A stretch of DNA of 64,000 nucleotides from Pseudomonadales bacterium. Lineage in GTDB: Bacteria; Pseudomonadota; Gammaproteobacteria; Pseudomonadales; UBA7434. Made by a program: the position numbers and the translations under genes. The stretch covers positions 642,189 through 706,188 of the forward strand of contig OZ253667.1 in assembly GCA_965263235.1 (NCBI GenBank). Reading direction: 5' to 3'. Below the pieces are notes generated by a model. That model saw nothing but the letters and a program-made list of their open reading frames with translations. It was not told the DNA's origin and ran no database searches. Positions 36,480-49,897 of this stretch are shown in pieces (within the stretch, counting starts at the first letter, position 1; each line of letters begins with the position of its first letter).

Positions 36480-37205
36480 ATGAATACAAAGCAAGTTTTA
36501 TTTGGAATTACGCTTGGTAGTTTGGTCATGCAATCTCATGCAGCGATCGTAGGCTTTACAAGTTTTGAAGAGCCTTCAACTGGAGGCAAGTACACCGATG
36601 CAGATACATCAAGCCATGCGTTAAGCAACGTAGCTGGGCTAGCTGATGTGGTTTATGCCTCAACGGGTTCAGAGCTTGGATTTTCCGCGTTCTTTACTAG
36701 TACTGGGGGATCTGGCCTGTCAGACGACGACTTTATTGGTGTTACTAGCTTTACGGGCGCAGTCGGAAGTTTTAGCGATGGAAGCCAGGGCTATCAGCTT
36801 TCAGATACTGATGGAATAGTAACAGTCACAACTGACAGTGTGGCGTTACTAGATGGTTTGAGCAGCGTCTCTATTGACTTCTTTCTGGACACAACGGGGT
36901 ATGAGTCAACTGACAGGACTCGTATATGGGCAGAAGTTGATGGCGGCGTAGAAATTGACCTGTTAAATACTGCTGGCAGCGATATAAATGATTTGGGCAT
37001 AGAAGGCAGTTGGCTCACAGTGACGGCGGATTTAACTGGGTACACCAGTGCTCAATTACATTTTGAAGCCGAGTTTAACGCCGCATCCGAAACAATTTAT
37101 TTTGACAATGTAGTTTTCGATTCTGTTGCTGCCGTGCCTGTGCCAGCCGCAGCCTGGCTATTTATTTCTGCGTTGAGTGGCATGGTTGTGGTTCGACGTA
37201 AATAG
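36480..37205 (+). CDS. secreted protein with VPxPA/PEP-CTERM-like sorting tag
   Basis: The ORF is open from 36417, but the ATG at 36480 gives a clean signal peptide, MNTKQVLFGITLGSLVMQSHA/A. The C-terminus is VPVPAAAWLFISALSGMVVVRRK. The body resembles the C-terminal beta-rich domain of the upstream 1425-aa protein (..IYFDNVVF vs ..IAFDNVEV). Confidence 0.65.
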   Translation: MNTKQVLFGITLGSLVMQSHAAIVGFTSFEEPSTGGKYTDADTSSHALSNVAGLADVVYASTGSELGFSAFFTSTGGSGLSDDDFIGVTSFTGAVGSFSDGSQGYQLSDTDGIVTVTTDSVALLDGLSSVSIDFFLDTTGYESTDRTRIWAEVDGGVEIDLLNTAGSDINDLGIEGSWLTVTADLTGYTSAQLHFEAEFNAASETIYFDNVVFDSVAAVPVPAAAWLFISALSGMVVVRRK

Positions 37206-37479: not shown

Positions 37480-38295
37480 ATGATAATTAGAAGTTTCACA
37501 CGTGCTTTTGCGATAAGCGCGGTTGCATTGTCTGGTTTTGCCAGCTTTGACGCATTATCTTCAACTGTTAACCCATCTGGTACAGGTCTATTTGTAGAGC
37601 TGGCAGATGAGGCCGGGCAGATTTTTGATGTTTGGGCTACGCCAGATTGGAATTCTCAAAGCCCATCGGATCAGGTGCCAGTCACTGGAATGTTGCAGGG
37701 TATAGGCACCGAAGGCGATATAGATTTTAGTTGGGATGTTAAGTACAACCCTGACCCATTTTTGCTGGTGACTTTTACGCTCAAAAACCTTTCGGCAAAT
37801 ACAAAAACATTTAGCTTGAATAGTAGTGTTCCCGTTTCTCCAGCAATACCCGGCGCCGTTTACTATGGAGGTTCATTGATCACTACGGTAAGTGATACGA
37901 GTAATGACGGTTTCGCACAGGTGGCAGGAGTTTCCGGTGGTGCAATTTTTGATGGAATGATTGATAGCGCATCCACTTTATTGCTAGGCGCAATATCGAC
38001 CAGTTGTGCGTCCGGTGGTGGTGGATGTACAAATACAACCTCAGACAGTGAAGGCTTAGCGGTAGCACCAGTAAATGTTGGAGATCCGCTTCCTTTACCA
38101 TCGTTACTCGACAATTCCTTGAGCGCTCTGACAGGTCCTTCAACTGATATTGGAATTGATCTGGACTTTACCCTTACCAGTGGAGATACGGCTACCTTTG
38201 TTGGCTATTTTGAAGTGCAAGCAGTTCCAGTACCAGCCGCAGCCTGGCTGTTTATGTCTTCGGTTATTGGTTTGATGGCCCTTCGGCGAAAATAA
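37480..38295 (+). CDS. secreted protein with VPxPA/PEP-CTERM-like sorting tag
   Basis: 271 aa with a signal peptide (...FASFDALS/ST). The C-terminus is VPVPAAAWLFMSSVIGLMALRRK. Confidence 0.65.
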   Translation: MIIRSFTRAFAISAVALSGFASFDALSSTVNPSGTGLFVELADEAGQIFDVWATPDWNSQSPSDQVPVTGMLQGIGTEGDIDFSWDVKYNPDPFLLVTFTLKNLSANTKTFSLNSSVPVSPAIPGAVYYGGSLITTVSDTSNDGFAQVAGVSGGAIFDGMIDSASTLLLGAISTSCASGGGGCTNTTSDSEGLAVAPVNVGDPLPLPSLLDNSLSALTGPSTDIGIDLDFTLTSGDTATFVGYFEVQAVPVPAAAWLFMSSVIGLMALRRK

Positions 38296-41789: not shown

Positions 41790-41958
41790 GGGAGTGTAGA
41801 AACAACCTCCTGTGTTTCACCCTTCGGGCGCCTTACGCGCGCGCTAAATCGCTCCAGGCATTTGGTGAACCCGCTTCTTGTATTCACCTGTCGCAAACCT
41901 CGGCCAATAAAAAACCCCAACCGGAAAACGGTTGAGGTTTGTTTATTGGTGGACGGCG
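41790..41958. repeat. left copy of a ~170-nt direct repeat (structured spacer, hairpin terminator and 12-nt ssrA 3'-end fragment)
   Basis: It aligns by eye with 47466-47637, with about 5 substitutions and 4 small indels. It ends tggtggacggcg, the complement of the tmRNA 3' terminus, then diverges. Confidence 0.85.
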
Positions 41959-42209: not shown

Positions 42210-43301
42210 ATGTATGACCCCACAAAACCTTATTACGATCTGCCGAAGCTGCCGCCAGCGCAATCGCTGGAATCACTGGAGCTGTACAAGTCTTTGCTGC
42301 CTGCATCGGAGGCATTGGCAAAGCTTTCAGCTACGGCAGAGCACCTACCTAACCAGGCTGCGCTATACCAGAGTGTGATTCTGCTTGAAGCAAAAGCTTC
42401 GTCAGAGATTGAGCAGGTCATTACGACAGATGAAAAACTGTTTAGCAGTGACCCAGCCCAGCACGCTACGGACCCTATGACTAAAGAAGTACTGAGTTAT
42501 GGAGAGGCCATTCACTGTGGAATGCAAAGTGATAGGCCCATTTGTACGCCGCTTATCGAAGAGATTTGTACAATTATCAAAGGCATGGAGATGCAGGTTA
42601 GAAAGGTGCCAGGCACATCGCTCAAGCGTCCCTCAACTGGTGAAATCGTATATACACCACCCGATGGCGAGAAACTGTTGAGAGATTTACTTGATAATTT
42701 GTTTGGTTGGATGAACGACAATGATGGCGTTCATCCCATCATTAAGGCCGCTATCGCACATTACCAGTTTGAGTCGATACATCCCTTTACCGATGGAAAT
42801 GGCCGGAGTGGTCGAATTATGGTGGTGCTTTATTTGGTGGAGCAAAAATTGCTGACTTCTCCAGTCTTGTTTTTATCGGGTGAAATTCTTGCTGATAAAA
42901 AAAGCTACTATTCGCTGCTTCAGTCTACTAGAGAGGATAACGATTTTATCCCTTATCTAATTTGGTTTGCGAATGTTGTACATCGAGCGTCGTTACAATC
43001 AACGATCCGAGCCTATAACGTGCGGCTTGCGATGCAGGAAGTTAAGCATGAACTAAGAGCTCTAGATTCAAAAATGTACTCACAAGATTTAGTTAATACA
43101 ATGTTTAGAGGGCCTATTATATTTGCCAACCAACTGGTCGAGCGTGACATAGTTGGGAGCATATCGACGGCACATACTTATTTAAGAAAGCTTGAGTCAG
43201 CTGGATTGTTAGTGAAATCGGACAGGAAATACCATCGCAAAACAGGGTACATCAATACTCGGTTGTTGAACGCATTAAGCGGGGAAATTGATCTGGGTTA
43301 A
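42210..43301 (+). CDS. Fic family protein (AMPylase-type active site, Fic_N-type N-terminus)
   Basis: It has the active-site motif HPFTDGNGRSGR and the N-terminus MYDPTKPYYDLPKLPP typical of Fic_N proteins. An inhibitory-helix-like ASSEIEQV is present. The ORF is open from a TTG at 42135, but the ATG at 42210 fits the family N-terminus. Confidence 0.88.
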   Translation: MYDPTKPYYDLPKLPPAQSLESLELYKSLLPASEALAKLSATAEHLPNQAALYQSVILLEAKASSEIEQVITTDEKLFSSDPAQHATDPMTKEVLSYGEAIHCGMQSDRPICTPLIEEICTIIKGMEMQVRKVPGTSLKRPSTGEIVYTPPDGEKLLRDLLDNLFGWMNDNDGVHPIIKAAIAHYQFESIHPFTDGNGRSGRIMVVLYLVEQKLLTSPVLFLSGEILADKKSYYSLLQSTREDNDFIPYLIWFANVVHRASLQSTIRAYNVRLAMQEVKHELRALDSKMYSQDLVNTMFRGPIIFANQLVERDIVGSISTAHTYLRKLESAGLLVKSDRKYHRKTGYINTRLLNALSGEIDLG

Positions 43302-43315
43302 AGGGGGTAATAACT

Positions 43316-43546
43316 ATGGTAAGCAAACTAAAATCTAAAACCAACAATCCTGTCGCTAAGCAGGCCAGGCGGTTTAATAAATCAGTGGTTTTTAAAGACC
43401 GTAAACAATCCCATAAACGGGGTTATATTAAACACAAAGGGCGTCAATACGAGCGCCCTTGTTTTTTGGTGGGACGGCGGGAGTTGATATTGATTTATAG
43501 GAACCTGATAAGAAGATATACCCCTAAAACCTATTTTCTAGCCTAA
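43316..43546 (+). CDS. small basic protein, candidate alternative ribosome-rescue factor ArfA-like (likely made from a non-stop transcript)
   Basis: A strong SD (aagggggtaataactATG) lies 14 nt after the fic stop. The basic sequence NNPVAKQARRFNKSVVFKDRKQSHKRGYIKHKGR loosely parallels the ArfA core (..[22 protein letters not shown]). An intrinsic terminator lies inside the ORF at codons ~41-51. The 3' tail overlaps the convergent nuclease gene. Confidence 0.5.
   Translation: MVSKLKSKTNNPVAKQARRFNKSVVFKDRKQSHKRGYIKHKGRQYERPCFLVGRRELILIYRNLIRRYTPKTYFLA
43437..43467 (+). terminator. intrinsic terminator located inside the ArfA-like ORF
   Basis: A 7-bp stem aagggcg / cgccctt with a 10-nt loop is followed by gTTTTTT. 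Confidence 0.65.
43467..43487. repeat. partial copy of the ssrA 3' end (att-like core)
   Basis: tggtgggacggcgggagttga compares with tggtggagacggcgggagttga at the true ssrA 3' end (47624-47645). The match extends into the preceding T-run. Confidence 0.75.
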
Positions 43547-44536
43547 ATCGGCGACATAAATCTGCTTGAGAGGGAGTATCGATCTGTATTTCGGGAGCAT
43601 GCTTGGGTAGTGCTCAAGAATCAAATCAACCAGTTCTTCGCCGTCAATCAATCGCAGTTTAGGTTTGTTGCGTTCCAGCAATCTGGCTGGTCGTGAGTAG
43701 GAGCCTAGATTTACGAATAAGCCATACTCTCCTTCGCCCAGTGAGCCTAACAATTGGTTTACTTCGGGCTCACCATTTGATGTGAGCGATTTTTTGCACT
43801 GCACTTTGATGATGGGCGGCTCGAATCCGAGTTCATCACTGTGGGCGATGACATCGACACCGCCATCACCGCTTTTGGACGATACTCTGGCTTTGTAGCC
43901 CATACATTCCAACAGGTGCGCGACGAAGTATTCAAACTCGTAACCATCGAGTTTGGCGTGCAGTTGCTTAATAATAAAATCCTCTGTTGTTTGCTGAGCT
44001 TGAAAAGAAATGGTTTCAGTGATGCTCTCATCGTCGGCAGTTTCATCATCACTAACATCTCTAGTTGTGCTGTTTGCGAGCCCAATTTTGGTTAAAAACT
44101 CTTGCGAGTGAGTTTTTACCGCAAAGAGCGTTAATGCAGAGCCAATTTCGTTTAAAGCTGACTGGCTAAATTCATTGCGTTCAAAGTGGCCAAGCCATTC
44201 TACCTGTCTGTGATTGGTATAGTCGTGTGGGTCGTCTGCAACGTAAATGTAATCACTAGTTACTCTCCCGATATTAACCACACGATCCTTGGACGGATAT
44301 ATAACAATATCCCCCTGTTTTATCTCGTTAACAAATCTAAATAACACGCCAGCGTTTTGCGGGATCGCACCTTTTTTTGATTCGGGCAGTGCTTTACTGA
44401 GAGCTTCTTTTAAGCTTTCTCTAGACACTGAGTATTGTTTTAAATCGCCAAGCTGTTCCCAACCTATACCAACATAATTGTTGTCTATGGGAGCCGATCC
44501 AGCTTTTTCTCCCATATGTATTCCCCAGACGTTCAT
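43538..44536 (-). CDS. Mrr-catalytic-domain restriction endonuclease with unassigned N-terminal domain
   Basis: 332 aa. The C-terminal Mrr_cat pattern is FEYFVAHLLECMGYKARVSSKSGDGGVDVIAH...IIKVQCKK. The N-terminal ~150 aa (WGIHMGEKAG...VGIGWEQLGDL...IKQGDIVIY) is not the Mrr winged-helix N-domain. A strong SD (aaggaagg) lies 13 nt after the upstream gene's stop. Confidence 0.85.
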   Translation of the reverse strand: MNVWGIHMGEKAGSAPIDNNYVGIGWEQLGDLKQYSVSRESLKEALSKALPESKKGAIPQNAGVLFRFVNEIKQGDIVIYPSKDRVVNIGRVTSDYIYVADDPHDYTNHRQVEWLGHFERNEFSQSALNEIGSALTLFAVKTHSQEFLTKIGLANSTTRDVSDDETADDESITETISFQAQQTTEDFIIKQLHAKLDGYEFEYFVAHLLECMGYKARVSSKSGDGGVDVIAHSDELGFEPPIIKVQCKKSLTSNGEPEVNQLLGSLGEGEYGLFVNLGSYSRPARLLERNKPKLRLIDGEELVDLILEHYPSMLPKYRSILPLKQIYVADLG

Positions 44537-44549
44537 TTTTTCCTTCCTT

Positions 44550-47312
44550 TTAACTGGTTGATGAAGTTTTCTTTCTTGCTTTTCGCTTTGGCTTTTCTTG
44601 TTTAGGCAAAAGGCTCGTGTATTGCTGATAGAGATTAAATAAAAAAGCTACGCGCTCAGCTTCTGATTTAAAACTGCGTTTTCCGTAGGCGGCGTCTACC
44701 GCTTTGTCGAGTGCTTGATGTGCTTTAAATAGAGCAGGAGGCATAGTTAGCGGGTCGTATAGGTCAGCCAAAGTCGAATCAGGGAATTGGTCGCGAGCAT
44801 CTAAAACTGCTTGGGCTTTTTCTTCAATTGCGGCTTTCTGTTTTACAGTTGGGGCTGGCGGCCAGGGGAAATTATTGTAAACAATATCTTTGGAATATCT
44901 GTAACGACTCTCTAGTCTTCCACATACGGCTCTTACCCATGAATTGTGCATCGTTGAAAGGAGTAAGCCCAAATGGTATGCGCTTGCGCTTGGGACGATT
45001 TTTACTAAATTGCTACAAAACGTTTCAGGTTGCTCGAAACCGATGGGGATAAATTGCCTTCTTTCGGATGAAACTTCGGGAACTATTAGATATGTATCAG
45101 AAGGTATGTTTTCTACATGAAATCTTGTGGGTGTGGCCGCCAATTTCTGTGTTGGATGGCTCTTGCTTGCTAACCTAACCGCTTTGACGGCTTCTACACG
45201 CTTTAAAGCCTCTGGCATTTTTTTTAGTTCATTTGGCGGGCATTCGCCCAACCACAAACACCAACGCTCATAACCATTAATAAACTCGTGAGCACCCAGC
45301 CAGCGTTTAAACCATCTTTCGGACAGAGGTTCTGTTTTTATAAACGCTTCTTTTTCCTCGGTGGTGAACAAGTAATTGCCACCATCAATTGGTTTATTGC
45401 CAATGCCTATCTCGGGGACGTTGCAAATAGGTTTTGCCCGTCTCGTTAAGACTACGTTAGCAGCGTCTACTAGATAGGGGTTGATGTTTTTTATTTCAAG
45501 TTCTAGTGGATCGCCTTTAATGTCTTCATATTCAAAAAGCCTTTTTTTGGTGGGGTATCGTTTGCTAAATCCCACAATAACACAATGGACGGCAGCGTTG
45601 TTTGCGGCTTCATTACTCCAGCAAAAGGTTCTATGAGCAAAGTCTATGGCAATTTCTTTTGCTAATAGATACCCCCACAGCACACCAACTTGCTCCCCTA
45701 AGCATATTGAGTTAGTAGAAACGAATGCACACGCAACGTTTTTATTCTCAGCTAGATATTCAGATGCTTTAATATACCAAGCTGCCACTAAATCAAGTAA
45801 GCCAGAGTTTTTTATACCTTTCAATACTAATGCCGTATCTTTTCTCTGTTCAGAATCAAGATACTTTGCGCCCACAAATGGTGGATTGCCAAAAATAAAG
45901 TTTGTTCTAGGTTTGGGTAACACATCTTCCCAGTCCATAGTCAGCGCATTGCCGCATTCAACTCTAGCCGACGATTTCAGTGGTATCCGCGCAAAATACA
46001 AACCAAACTCTTCAGAAACTAACAGATTCATTTGGTGATCCATCAACCACAATGCAACCTGTGCAATTTGAGCAGGAAATTCTTCAATCTCTATGCCATA
46101 AAACTGGTCAACGTCCAACTGCAACATAGAATGAATATCAAAAGTCTGCTGACCACTTTCACTCGATGCTCTTAAAATCTCTAGCTCAAGTGTTCGTAAT
46201 TCTCTGTAAGCAATTACCAGGAAGTTTCCGCAGCCACAAGCTGGGTCAAAAAAAGTAAGTGTTCGGAGCTTTTTATGAAATTCAAAAAGCTTGTTCTTGT
46301 TATTCTTGACTTTTTCGAACTCAGCTCGTAGATCATCCATGAAAAGCGGATTTATTAGCTTGAGGATGTTTTTTTCGCTGGTGTAGTGTGCTCCAAGGTT
46401 TCGCCGTTTCTTCTTATCCATGATTGATTGAAATAGCGAGCCGAATATTGCGGGCGATATAAGGCTCCAATCCAGCGCGCAGCAATCGAGCAATGCCTGG
46501 CGCATGGCTGTGTCGAAAGCTGCAATCGGCAAAGACTCTTCGAAGAGTTTGCCATTGATATATTCAAAGGCTGCGAGTTGTTCATCACGATTACTAAGGC
46601 GCTTTTCGTGTGGTGTATTCAGAACCTGGAAAATGGTGCTCAAGTGCATGGCTAAATCTGAACCATCTTCGGCTGTTCGGTCGATAATGTAGCTTTCGAA
46701 CTGTTGCTGCTCAAAGATCCCTGTGTCTTCTGCGAACATACAAAACAGCAGTCGCACAAGATAGACTTCTAAAACATGCCCTTCGTATCCAGACTCCTTC
46801 ATTTGGTCGTGCAGCTTACCCATAGCTTCCGCTGCCTCAATGTTGACGGGATCTTGTTCTTTGATTTTGTGAGTTTGGTAACCCGCTATAAAGCCGAATA
46901 GATTTATATTGTTGTGTAGTTCTTCCAGCGAAAACTCGGTCTGTGTGTCTTCGTCCAGATCGTAGAGGCGAAACTTCGCAAAGTCGGAAACAATCACATA
47001 GCGCGGTAAATCACGCTCCTTGAGTCCCTCGAAGTAGGAAAGGGCTTGTTCGCGGGCACTGTCTAAGTCTTTTCCTCGCGATTTATGTTCTATCAGTAAC
47101 TTACCCTTCCAAAGCAAGTCGATATAGCCATCTTTGCCATCAATCTTTTTAACGTGGGTTTCAAATGTTGCGATTCGGCGGCGAGTGACGCCGAAGATAT
47201 TGAAAAAACCGTCCCAAAAGCTTTTGGCTTCGGCATGTTCTGACGATTCCTCCGCCCAATCCTTTGAGAATTGAAATGCGCGTGATCTGATCTCGTTCCA
47301 GCTCAGAGGCAT
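44550..47312 (-). CDS. MmeI-family type IIL (IIG) restriction-modification enzyme (fused nuclease, m6A methyltransferase and TRD)
   Basis: 920 aa, collinear with my recollection of MmeI (about 919 aa). The N-terminus is LSWNEIRSRAFQFSKDW and the PD-ExK motif is IDLLWKGKLLIEHKSRGKDL. SAM motif I is FFDPACGCGNFLV and motif IV is GNPPFVG. It also has the conserved C-terminal GRLESRYRYS and LYDPLTMPPAL. Confidence 0.9.
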   Translation of the reverse strand: MPLSWNEIRSRAFQFSKDWAEESSEHAEAKSFWDGFFNIFGVTRRRIATFETHVKKIDGKDGYIDLLWKGKLLIEHKSRGKDLDSAREQALSYFEGLKERDLPRYVIVSDFAKFRLYDLDEDTQTEFSLEELHNNINLFGFIAGYQTHKIKEQDPVNIEAAEAMGKLHDQMKESGYEGHVLEVYLVRLLFCMFAEDTGIFEQQQFESYIIDRTAEDGSDLAMHLSTIFQVLNTPHEKRLSNRDEQLAAFEYINGKLFEESLPIAAFDTAMRQALLDCCALDWSLISPAIFGSLFQSIMDKKKRRNLGAHYTSEKNILKLINPLFMDDLRAEFEKVKNNKNKLFEFHKKLRTLTFFDPACGCGNFLVIAYRELRTLELEILRASSESGQQTFDIHSMLQLDVDQFYGIEIEEFPAQIAQVALWLMDHQMNLLVSEEFGLYFARIPLKSSARVECGNALTMDWEDVLPKPRTNFIFGNPPFVGAKYLDSEQRKDTALVLKGIKNSGLLDLVAAWYIKASEYLAENKNVACAFVSTNSICLGEQVGVLWGYLLAKEIAIDFAHRTFCWSNEAANNAAVHCVIVGFSKRYPTKKRLFEYEDIKGDPLELEIKNINPYLVDAANVVLTRRAKPICNVPEIGIGNKPIDGGNYLFTTEEKEAFIKTEPLSERWFKRWLGAHEFINGYERWCLWLGECPPNELKKMPEALKRVEAVKAVRLASKSHPTQKLAATPTRFHVENIPSDTYLIVPEVSSERRQFIPIGFEQPETFCSNLVKIVPSASAYHLGLLLSTMHNSWVRAVCGRLESRYRYSKDIVYNNFPWPPAPTVKQKAAIEEKAQAVLDARDQFPDSTLADLYDPLTMPPALFKAHQALDKAVDAAYGKRSFKSEAERVAFLFNLYQQYTSLLPKQEKPKRKARKKTSSTS

Positions 47313-47460: not shown

Positions 47461-47471
47461 ACGGCGGGAGT
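47461..47471. repeat. 11-nt partial copy of the ssrA 3' core
   Basis: acggcgggagt is identical to 47632-47642 inside ssrA. It lies exactly at the left edge of the right ~170-nt repeat. Confidence 0.5.
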
Positions 47472-47637
47472 GTATGAAACACCTCCTGTGTTTCACCCTT
47501 CGGGCGCCTTACGGGCGCGCTAAATCGCTCCAGGCGATTTGGTGAGCCCGCTTCTTGTGTTCATCTGTCGCAAACCTCGGCCAATAAAAAACCCCAACCG
47601 GAAAACGGTTGAGGTTTGTTTTTTGGTGGAGACGGCG
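47466..47637. repeat. right copy of the ~170-nt direct repeat (runs into the authentic ssrA 3' end)
   Basis: See 41790-41958. It contains the ssrA terminator ccccaaccg-gaaaa-cggttgagg (47592-47614). Confidence 0.85.
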
Positions 47638-47980
47638 GGAGTTGAACCCGCGTCCGTCAGTCCTCTGCCATCGGCTCTACATGCTTAGATCCGCCTATTA
47701 ATTTTATCTCTCTCGGCCCAGCGGTCGGGGTGATGAGAGACGAGCCCGGTAAAAGGTTTCGCGCATTGGCCCCGAACGTGTCGCTGCGCTAGCTTGTTCT
47801 GTATGACAGTCACTTCTTGTTTACAAGCATCCAATGGTGACTGCTAGCAGGGTTTAAGCCGCTAGAGCGTAGTTTTCGTCGTTGGCAACTATAAAGTTAC
47901 AGCGATTGTTTTACGAGAGTCACTACCCTCTCGGCATGCACCTTTGGTTTCGTAACCGGCGTCGAATCCAGATCGTCCCC
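47624..47980 (-). ncRNA. ssrA: tmRNA (transfer-messenger RNA)
   Basis: On the minus strand the 5' end reads GGGGACGATCTGGATTCGACGCCGG and the 3' end reads GGACGCGGGTTCAACTCCCGCCGTCTCCACCA. The internal tag reading frame encodes ANDENYALAA followed by a stop. Confidence 0.96.
47854..47886 (-). other. tmRNA tag-peptide reading frame (ANDENYALAA plus stop)
   Basis: The minus-strand sequence is GCC AAC GAC GAA AAC TAC GCT CTA GCG GCT TAA. Confidence 0.9.
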
Positions 47981-49133: not shown

Positions 49134-49579
49134 GTGTATCGTAAATGCGGCTTGAGCGTAGGTGTTAAAGTGGCGCTAACTACCAATACATGGCTGTAGA
49201 GTCTTGACCAGAAAGGCTGTTTGCGTGTAGTTTAGCGGGGCTTGGGTGTGTTTTCTGTCTGTTTGCGAGTTTCTAGCGGAAGTCTTTCTAGTGTTTCCTT
49301 CTAGTCAAAAAATGTCATCTTGGTGTATGCGTCGCCAATGGTTTGCGTTGTCCTGTTTTTTTGGGCAAGGCTGGTCAGAAGTATGGTGTTCGTTTTAATT
49401 AATATATGGGGGCTAGCCGGCAAGTAACTGCAATATTACGTGGGTAGGTTAGAGATAGCTAAAGCGTAGATTTCGTAGGGAAAGCAAAGAAAGGCTTGTA
49501 GAAAACCAAGTGTATTGCCTTTAGGAATGTTATAAGGCTGCGTAAGGTGCAAGAAGAATATTTGTGTTAGAGGTTTAAA

Positions 49580-49789
49580 ATGTCAGATAAAGTAACAGGT
49601 ACAGTGAAGTGGTTTAATGAATCAAAAGGGTTTGGGTTTATCGAGCAGCAATCGGGCCCTGATGTTTTTGTTCATTTTAGCGCGATTAAAATGGATGGCT
49701 TTAAAGCTTTAAAAGATGGTCAGCAAGTAGAATTTAAAATCATCGATGGCCAAAAGGGGCCGCAAGCTGAAGAAGTTATGCCAGTATAG
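49580..49789 (+). CDS. cold-shock protein (CspA family)
   Basis: 69 aa with [15 protein letters not shown] (RNP1) and VFVHFSAI (RNP2). An upstream non-coding region of about 440 nt is consistent with a long csp 5' UTR. Confidence 0.95.
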
Positions 49790-49828
49790 TTTGACCTGTA
49801 CTAGTTAAATACAGCTAGTTAGAAAAAT

Positions 49829-49858
49829 AAAGGCGCTGGTAACAGCGCCTTTATTTTT
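49829..49858. terminator. hairpin terminator between convergent csp and smpB (potentially bidirectional)
   Basis: aaaggcgctg-gtaa-cagcgccttt is flanked by an A-run and a T-run. Confidence 0.7.
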
Positions 49859-49897
49859 GGTTGTTAATTTTCTAGAGCCTAATGGCCTAAATATCGC

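Follow-up and report, generated by a model that had tools for sequence, protein, structure and literature searches.

Why should a small gene carry a transcription terminator inside its own reading frame, ahead of its stop codon, and what does it mean when that terminator runs into a fragment of ssrA, the gene for transfer-messenger RNA (tmRNA)? Both questions are raised by an open reading frame (ORF) at positions 43316-43546 of a 64,000-nucleotide (nt) stretch of DNA from a Pseudomonadales bacterium (GenBank assembly GCA_965263235.1, contig OZ253667.1, positions 642,189 to 706,188), which is referred to below as the window. An earlier description made from the letters of the window, here termed the sequence-only reading, had taken the product for an ArfA-like ribosome-rescue factor meaningfully embedded in the ssrA integration hotspot. 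We found the gene to belong to the protein family DUF7230, in which the in-ORF terminator is a conserved and selected trait with the architecture of arfA and brfA, which makes this family a strong new candidate for a rescue factor under tmRNA control. Of the original idea of an ArfA-like mini-ORF, the in-frame terminator architecture therefore stands, being conserved and under selection, and the likeness to ArfA in sequence does not.

The ORF itself is as first described: its ATG lies 14 nt past the fic stop codon (TAA, 43299-43301), it spans 76 codons, and the strong Shine-Dalgarno sequence proposed for it is present. The features that concern it are as follows.

43316-43546, + strand: DUF7230 ORF, 76 codons from an ATG start, with a very basic product.
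43303-43308, + strand: Shine-Dalgarno sequence AGGGGG, 7 nt 5' of the ATG, read off the sequence.
43316-43447, + strand: conserved coding core, codons 1-44, with the motif NPVAK..FNK..V..DRK..K.GY.KHKG, from the Pfam match, alignment and the ratio of nonsynonymous to synonymous substitution (dN/dS).
43437-43460, + strand: in-ORF hairpin, with the K-G-R codons as its 5' arm and the E-R-P-C codons as its 3' arm.
43461-43467, + strand: terminator tract, G followed by T6 (GTTTTTT), at codons 49-51; the predicted 3' end of the messenger RNA (mRNA), which would thus be stop-less.
43468-43546, + strand: read-through tail to the first in-frame stop, an unconserved island-junction sequence that overlaps the Mrr-like gene by 9 nt.

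The protein is a member of Pfam DUF7230 (PF23876), matching the model over residues 8-44 with 46.2 bits against a cut-off of 27 (E = 5e-12), and it also matches the phage family PHROG phrog_1359, whose function is not assigned (E = 4e-10). An exhaustive HMMER search gathered 121 cluster representatives, mostly 40-70 residues long, which share the motif NPVAK-H-A-x-x-FNK-x-x-V-x-x-DRKK-x-x-K-R-GY-x-KHKG. Pfam and NCBI list the family without a known function, no NCBIfam model matches the window protein (0 families), and a word-index protein search with it returned the query itself as the only match. When the window copy was compared with its two closest relatives (L001 and L002, 71% identity), codons 1-44 gave a dN of 0.17-0.29 and a dS of 1.7-2.5; this dN/dS of about 0.1 indicates purifying selection, and hence a genuine protein-coding gene.

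The in-ORF site in the window has the form of an intrinsic (rho-independent) terminator, as predicted from a G+C-rich stem-loop with a T-run directly after it. The arm AAGGGCGT (43437-43444) pairs with GCGCCCTT (43453-43460) through 8 base pairs (bp), 5 of them G-C, around an 8-nt loop, where the sequence-only reading had counted 7 bp; hairpin and T6 together (43437-43467) occupy codons 41-51 with a predicted stability of -13.2 kcal/mol. The first in-frame stop (43544-43546) lies 79 nt beyond the T-run, well past the terminator as had been claimed, and the tail leading to it reaches 9 nt into the convergent nuclease gene, the Mrr-like gene at 43538-44536, which was also seen correctly at the outset. 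On alignment, the tails of P0001, P0002 and P0003 are mutually unrelated. Taken alone the hairpin is not unusual: a scan of 7 kb gave 8 terminator-like sites where 7.1 were expected, and the fold z-score is -1.4. Its significance is solely that homologues conserve it, since the single-site statistics are unremarkable.

To examine conservation, one genome of each species was scanned with a degenerate DNA pattern drawn up by hand for the motif, and at least 119 loci were recovered. About 100 of the listed loci are Acinetobacter chromosomes, and this Acinetobacter-dominated set is no census of lineages. Among the matches listed, the terminator lies wholly within the ORF in 85 of 103 distinct loci, typically as a stem of 10-12 bp followed by a T-run; in those 85 the hairpin starts where the KHK codons end, and 42-165 nt separate the motif from the stop. 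Refolding revealed the same hairpin with a mismatch in several of the 15 loci that had been scored as lacking a terminator. By comparison, 38 of 989 control ORFs from the same loci show a site of this kind, with a stem of 8 bp or more, within their last 30 codons.

The stem also carries the mark of selection on base pairing. Across 79 distinct Acinetobacter sequences aligned without gaps, the share of paired cells is 94.6% and drops to 40-72% if the partner column is slid, and changes on both sides are seen in 5 of the 11 pairs; one pair is CG in 40 sequences, AU in 31 and GU in 8, and is unpaired in none. The covariation score was reached by 0 of 500 shuffles, and the T-run at the terminator position is invariant in all 79 sequences. 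One such exchange combines a synonymous change in the 5' arm (CGA to AGA) with a compensating change in the 3' arm that replaces Arg by Leu, and because the compensating change alters the residue, selection acts on the RNA stem and not on the tail peptide.

The same position has been used in other lineages. Three further independent ones (L246, L247 and L249) have hairpins of differing sequence that again start at the KHKG codons within the ORF. A second class, found outside Acinetobacter in Marinobacterium, Oleiphilaceae, Hahellaceae and others (L004, L021, L025, L035, L037, L064, L067, L089, L112, L118 and L248), has near-perfect hairpins of 13-27 bp that enclose the end of the ORF together with its stop codon, and its ORFs often end in ...IAA, ...VAA or ...QAA. 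In E. coli arfA, a structure of this kind is cut by RNase III (PMC8012679). As a positive control, a bona fide arfA of the Citrobacter freundii complex (L250; PF03889, adjoining mscL) has its hairpin and T-run at codons ~51-66 and a short hydrophobic tail with the stop 18 nt past the in-ORF terminator, a layout like that of the DUF7230 genes.

The read-through tails are themselves not random at their ends. A C-terminal AA was found in 22 of 90 distinct tails and in 11 of 597 control ORFs (p = 2e-13), and in 13 of the 121 cluster representatives. In the Acinetobacter tails that end in ...LMAA the stop lies 14-16 nt past the stem and both Ala codons vary synonymously between species, which implies that the read-through product is translated often enough for its C-terminus to be selected. 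ClpX recognises the end of the ssrA tag, and a C-terminal ...AA is similar to it. By this analogy, it is possible that the tail acts as a degron on the read-through product.

The best explanation for these observations, which in our judgement has an even chance of being right, is that DUF7230 is a tmRNA-gated protein, either a rescue factor or at least an effector that reports the failure of trans-translation. The intrinsic terminator, starting at the last conserved codons (K-H-K-G-R) and with its T-run well ahead of the first in-frame stop, would end the transcript within the ORF, and ribosomes on the terminated transcript would reach its 3' end and stall. With trans-translation working, tmRNA would tag the peptide of ~50 residues for degradation; once tmRNA capacity is exhausted, untagged peptide would accumulate, and may then bind the ribosome through its Lys/Arg-rich segment (DRK..K.GY.KHKG) and provide backup rescue. 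In many relatives the rare read-through product has an ...AA ending similar to the ssrA degron, which would lock expression a second time. The parts of this scheme differ in strength: gating of expression by tmRNA is likely, while rescue activity, argued by analogy with ArfA and BrfA, is a serious possibility that falls somewhat short of being probable.

How close is the protein to ArfA itself? The comparison with the ArfA profile that had been proposed at the outset gave no match to PF03889, at E-values up to 10, for the window protein or for four other DUF7230 members, in a search in which E. coli ArfA scored 89.5 bits as the positive control. The E. coli reference was checked against PDB chain 5H5U_3 and 120 ArfA homologues were collected. 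Alignment of the ArfA and DUF7230 profiles with hhalign gave a probability of 0.14%, the ArfA profile used being built of enterobacterial sequences only and the comparison at deep homology limited accordingly. Against a DUF7230 hidden Markov model (HMM), E. coli ArfA scored -3.9 bits, and 18,568 of 20,000 composition-matched shuffles (93%) scored at least as high as real ArfA. The KGKGS motif of ArfA is missing in DUF7230, the window protein having KRGY where ArfA has KGKGSY. The residue-by-residue parallel with the ArfA core in the sequence-only reading thus reflects composition alone, and by sequence the gene is DUF7230 and not ArfA-like.

The gene occurs in several settled chromosomal contexts. 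In Acinetobacter it has its own promoter and is convergent with the genes downstream of ptsP; in one gammaproteobacterial lineage (L025, L118 and L248) the order rarA-crcB-DUF7230-serS is fixed, and in a third lineage the gene adjoins hrpB. The neighbourhoods examined show no tie to translation genes, except in the one lineage where the gene lies upstream of serS. In one metagenomic contig (L246, positions 3-759) the homologue has an overlapping 92-residue ORF on one side and a BrnA antitoxin gene on the other, and is apparently inserted in or beside a BrnT/BrnA-like toxin-antitoxin pair.

In the window the gene lies among defence genes next to ssrA, and the elements of this region are as follows.

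41790-41953, no strand: 164-nt direct repeat of the flank just downstream of ssrA, a copy of 47466-47630, 93-96% identical.
41946-41958, - strand: third, degenerate ssrA 3'-end copy (TGGTGGACGGCG) at the far end of the Fic-DUF7230 islet, read off the sequence.
42210-43301, + strand: fic gene, a full-length match to the SoFic anti-phage system (Pfam Fic_N, Fic and SoFic-like_C; PADLOC).
43467-43487, - strand: second ssrA 3'-end copy, an att-like direct repeat at the islet junction, from repeat analysis.
43538-44536, - strand: Mrr-like restriction endonuclease gene, convergent with the DUF7230 gene (PADLOC candidate defence family PDC-S02, 451 bits).
44550-47312, - strand: gene for an MmeI-like type IIG restriction-modification enzyme (all five MmeI Pfam domains; PADLOC REase_MTase_IIG, 1234 bits).
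47624-47980, - strand: tmRNA gene (ssrA) with the tag peptide ANDENYALAA (ARAGORN; Rfam RF00023, 204.6 bits).

The T-run of the terminator does merge into a 21-nt copy of the ssrA 3' end, as had been noticed: TGGTGGGACGGCGGGAGTTGA (43467-43487) is the reverse complement of the tmRNA 3' end (47624-47645) less one base, and T43467 is its first base. An exact 15-mer of the repeat occurs in the window at those two places only, against 0 expected by chance. Hence a tmRNA 3'-end direct repeat stands at the distal border, and the window resembles ssrA 3'-end genomic islands both in such border repeats and in its cargo of defence genes. It differs from them in that neither islet has an integrase: between 41959 and 47623 there are only the fic, DUF7230, Mrr-like and MmeI-like genes. 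From the three ssrA 3'-end copies and the 164-nt repeat we therefore recognise two integrase-less islets stacked at ssrA, one with the MmeI-like and Mrr-like genes and the other with SoFic followed by DUF7230. Both copies of the 164-nt repeat contain the same 12-bp terminator hairpin, and because these ssrA-flank duplications bracket the whole 5.7-kb insert, the arrangement suggests that the composite islet brought a copy of the ssrA flank with it and came in by recombination there, and not by a resident integrase. That the shared T-run and A-run served as the junction site is speculation.

One candidate origin of the terminator, that it is the native ssrA terminator displaced by insertion of the island, was rejected, as the closest homologues have the same hairpin at the same codons and no ssrA sequence nearby. 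Both L001 and L002 carry AAAGGGCGC-loop-GCGCCCTT and a T-run there (K-G-R paired with E-R-P), with unrelated tails past the hairpin and stops ~45 nt further on. Their contexts are unrelated to that of the window, one copy lying between MFS transporter and CitMHS transporter genes, and neither has a tmRNA gene or ssrA fragment near the DUF7230 gene. Nor was a tmRNA gene found within the retrieved flanks of any of 83 other DUF7230 loci (0/83). Since Fic does not recur beside it either, and the gene elsewhere occupies conserved chromosomal positions, its adjacency to ssrA is, judging by these genomic contexts, an accident of island integration and the ssrA fragment an att-type scar; the meaningful embedding of a rescue factor in the ssrA hotspot has to be given up.

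Elsewhere in the window, overlapping sub-threshold Rfam matches at 49504-49897 (cspA thermoregulator, 32.6 bits; BjrC1505, 38.4 bits; STnc40 on both strands) end in a strong terminator at ~49830-49858 and may represent a cold-shock gene leader or a small RNA. A 74-nt direct repeat (37131-37204 and 38221-38294, 74% identity, 1090 nt apart) probably reflects paralogous coding segments.

Several points weigh against a tmRNA-gated rescue factor. In the long-hairpin, AA-tailed class the stop sits inside the hairpin, so that loss of the stop needs a putative RNase III cut, and some bacterial members, for example in Arenicellales, have an early ordinary stop codon. T4-like and jumbo phages often carry the family, with copies in 31 phage genomes and in at least 120 IMG/VR contigs, and most of these phage copies have a stop 3-10 codons past the motif and a weak hairpin or none. 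One jumbo-phage group keeps the hairpin with the stop at the stem foot; in Salmonella phage Munch (L122) the depositors annotated a terminator at 497-521 inside the coding sequence (371-523), and since the stop sits at the stem foot its terminated transcripts probably keep the stop. About ten phage copies form the N-terminal part of larger proteins (150-600 residues) in which a second domain could not be recognised, and in some phage contigs (IMG/VR L127, L133, L151, L171, L183, L214 and L227; P0056, P0069 and P0073) the motif forms the N-terminal 40 residues of proteins of 350-1100 residues, where, apart from a weak HNH match in one long phage fusion, no domain was recognisable. Such fusions are hard to square with a C-terminal tail threading into the mRNA channel, and are the main evidence against a strictly ArfA-like mechanism. 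Carriage by phages is in itself no argument against a rescue role, and a pelagiphage gene with the PF03889 ArfA domain has been reported (PMC12753301).

On the same side of the balance, DUF7230 was not seen in A. baumannii, in which a survey of 188 genomes with ArfA and ArfB profiles reported no ArfA, ArfB or ribosome-associated quality control (RQC) (PMC8522692); as the family was not found there, it does not fill that gap. A literature search found no paper on DUF7230, none on an Acinetobacter rescue factor and no experimental report on any member, and neither a PDB phmmer search with the protein nor a PDB search with the family profile returned a solved structure. Because there is neither sequence kinship with ArfA nor a related structure, what argues for a rescue function is gene architecture together with amino-acid composition, and nothing besides.

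Could the family then be an ordinary small basic protein, probably derived from phages, that binds nucleic acid or the ribosome, with a terminator overlap that follows from gene compactness and has no regulatory meaning? Its abundance in T4-like and jumbo phages, usually with a normal stop and sometimes as the N-terminal module of a larger protein, would fit this, as would the lack of likeness to any known rescue factor. A needed protein, however, would not tolerate a stop beyond its terminator in as many loci as were counted among the listed matches, and compactness accounts neither for compensatory stem changes that alter the encoded residue, nor for AA tails that are enriched and preserved through synonymous changes, nor for unrelated hairpin sequences that arose at the same codon position in several lineages; we therefore regard this account as unlikely, while leaving it a real minority share. 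That DUF7230 is instead a highly diverged true member of the ArfA family would agree with the similar size, charge and gene layout, with the few UniProt entries that name Acinetobacter proteins 'Ribosome alternative rescue factor ArfA', and with the one hint of kinship that was found, a sub-threshold match of E. coli ArfA to the Pfam DUF7230 model (13 bits, E = 0.11). This hint was not reproduced with a separately built HMM, and no member tested matches PF03889, the KGKGS motif is missing, and both the profile alignment and the score of real ArfA, no better than that of most shuffles, speak against common descent within the reach of the enterobacterial ArfA profile, which makes the proposal improbable.

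A stop-less architecture would serve a toxin or alarm equally well, a protein that accumulates when trans-translation is blocked by phage or stress and then shuts down translation; the window copy does lie between the SoFic gene and a restriction islet, and one homologue adjoins the BrnA antitoxin gene. We nevertheless hold this to be quite unlikely, as most genomes carry the gene at core chromosomal positions and not in defence islands, no PADLOC model matches the DUF7230 protein, and phages carry their own copies with normal stops, which would be unexpected for a host suicide factor. Two further explanations are contradicted by the gene contexts. Only 14 nt separate the gene from the end of fic, which precedes it on the same strand, no terminator intervenes and the two are probably co-transcribed, so that a role as partner, antitoxin or accessory to the neighbouring Fic (SoFic) enzyme was a natural alternative, and one that the sequence-only reading had itself entertained; yet no other locus examined has a fic neighbour, and the Fic protein fits the whole single-gene SoFic model (PDLC03963, E = 9e-89, residues 11-357 of 363) and has its own Fic_N region, leaving a Fic partner very improbable. 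A translated ORF that overlaps a terminator is also the layout of attenuators of the pyrBI type, in which case the product would be a leader peptide and translation through the terminator would control read-through into the gene downstream. Here the peptide is strongly conserved across bacteria and phages, and the gene that follows is convergent in both the window and Acinetobacter, which leaves nothing to attenuate; attenuation is scarcely credible.

Of the proposals considered, a tmRNA-gated DUF7230 protein remains the one that we prefer. In its fullest form, which we put forward tentatively and would not call probable, DUF7230 would be a fourth, independently evolved backup rescue family after ArfA, ArfT and BrfA, chromosomal in environmental Acinetobacter and several marine gammaproteobacteria, borrowed by T4-like and jumbo phages, and double-locked in its expression: the stop-less mRNA would lead to tmRNA tagging and the read-through product would carry a genome-encoded ...AA degron, so that the factor would appear only when trans-translation, and possibly the capacity of ClpXP, has failed. 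The survival of bacteria depends on the rescue of ribosomes stalled on stop-less mRNA, and efforts are under way to target trans-translation with antibiotics. The presence of a backup factor decides whether a block of tmRNA kills a species, and to our knowledge the release-factor-dependent backup families number only three, all of them discovered through genetics in one organism each. Profile surveys report no backup system in some lineages, A. baumannii among them, and our results suggest that rescue candidates missed by sequence profiles can be recognised from gene architecture, namely a small basic ORF with a conserved terminator in it. Here the architecture points to a whole Pfam family without an assigned function, with hundreds of members in bacteria and phages. 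If the proposal is true, large phages would appear, from the copies that they carry, to manage the rescue of ribosomes in the course of infection.

How, finally, does DUF7230 compare with the backup systems already described? The in-ORF terminator is a trait otherwise known only from ArfA and BrfA, and in DUF7230 it is conserved in ~100 bacterial genomes among the matches listed. Both arfA and brfA are expressed from stop-less mRNA by way of an internal terminator or RNase III, and both are repressed by trans-translation (PMC8012679, PMC6881298). ArfA (PF03889; E. coli yhdL) and DUF7230 are alike in being small, Lys/Arg-rich proteins of ~50-60 residues, with a hairpin and T-run in the ORF soon after the basic segment and then a short, hydrophobic, unconserved tail, and the long-hairpin class of DUF7230 resembles the RNase III route of E. 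coli arfA (PMC8012679). They differ in that DUF7230 has no detectable sequence similarity to ArfA, has the motif NPVAK..FNK..DRKK..KRGY.KHKG in place of KGKGS, has many degron-like ...AA tails and is widespread in phages, partly as fusions, and in that its rescue role is proposed by analogy. BrfA (Bacillus subtilis YqkK), like DUF7230, is unrelated to ArfA by sequence, and its rho-independent terminator before the stop, its stop-less mRNA and its repression by trans-translation (PMC6881298, PMC8012679) are what we propose for DUF7230; it is a separate family confined to the Bacillus group, and its recruitment of release factor 2 (RF2) is proven by experiment, where for DUF7230 we infer rescue. 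ArfT of Francisella tularensis, whose discovery was prompted by the lack of any known backup factor in that species, is likewise very small, basic and unrelated to ArfA, with a positively charged C-terminal stretch (PMC6299226). In contrast to DUF7230 genes, which have a terminator or putative RNase III site, arfT lacks both ahead of its stop codon and is free of tmRNA regulation (PMC6299226).

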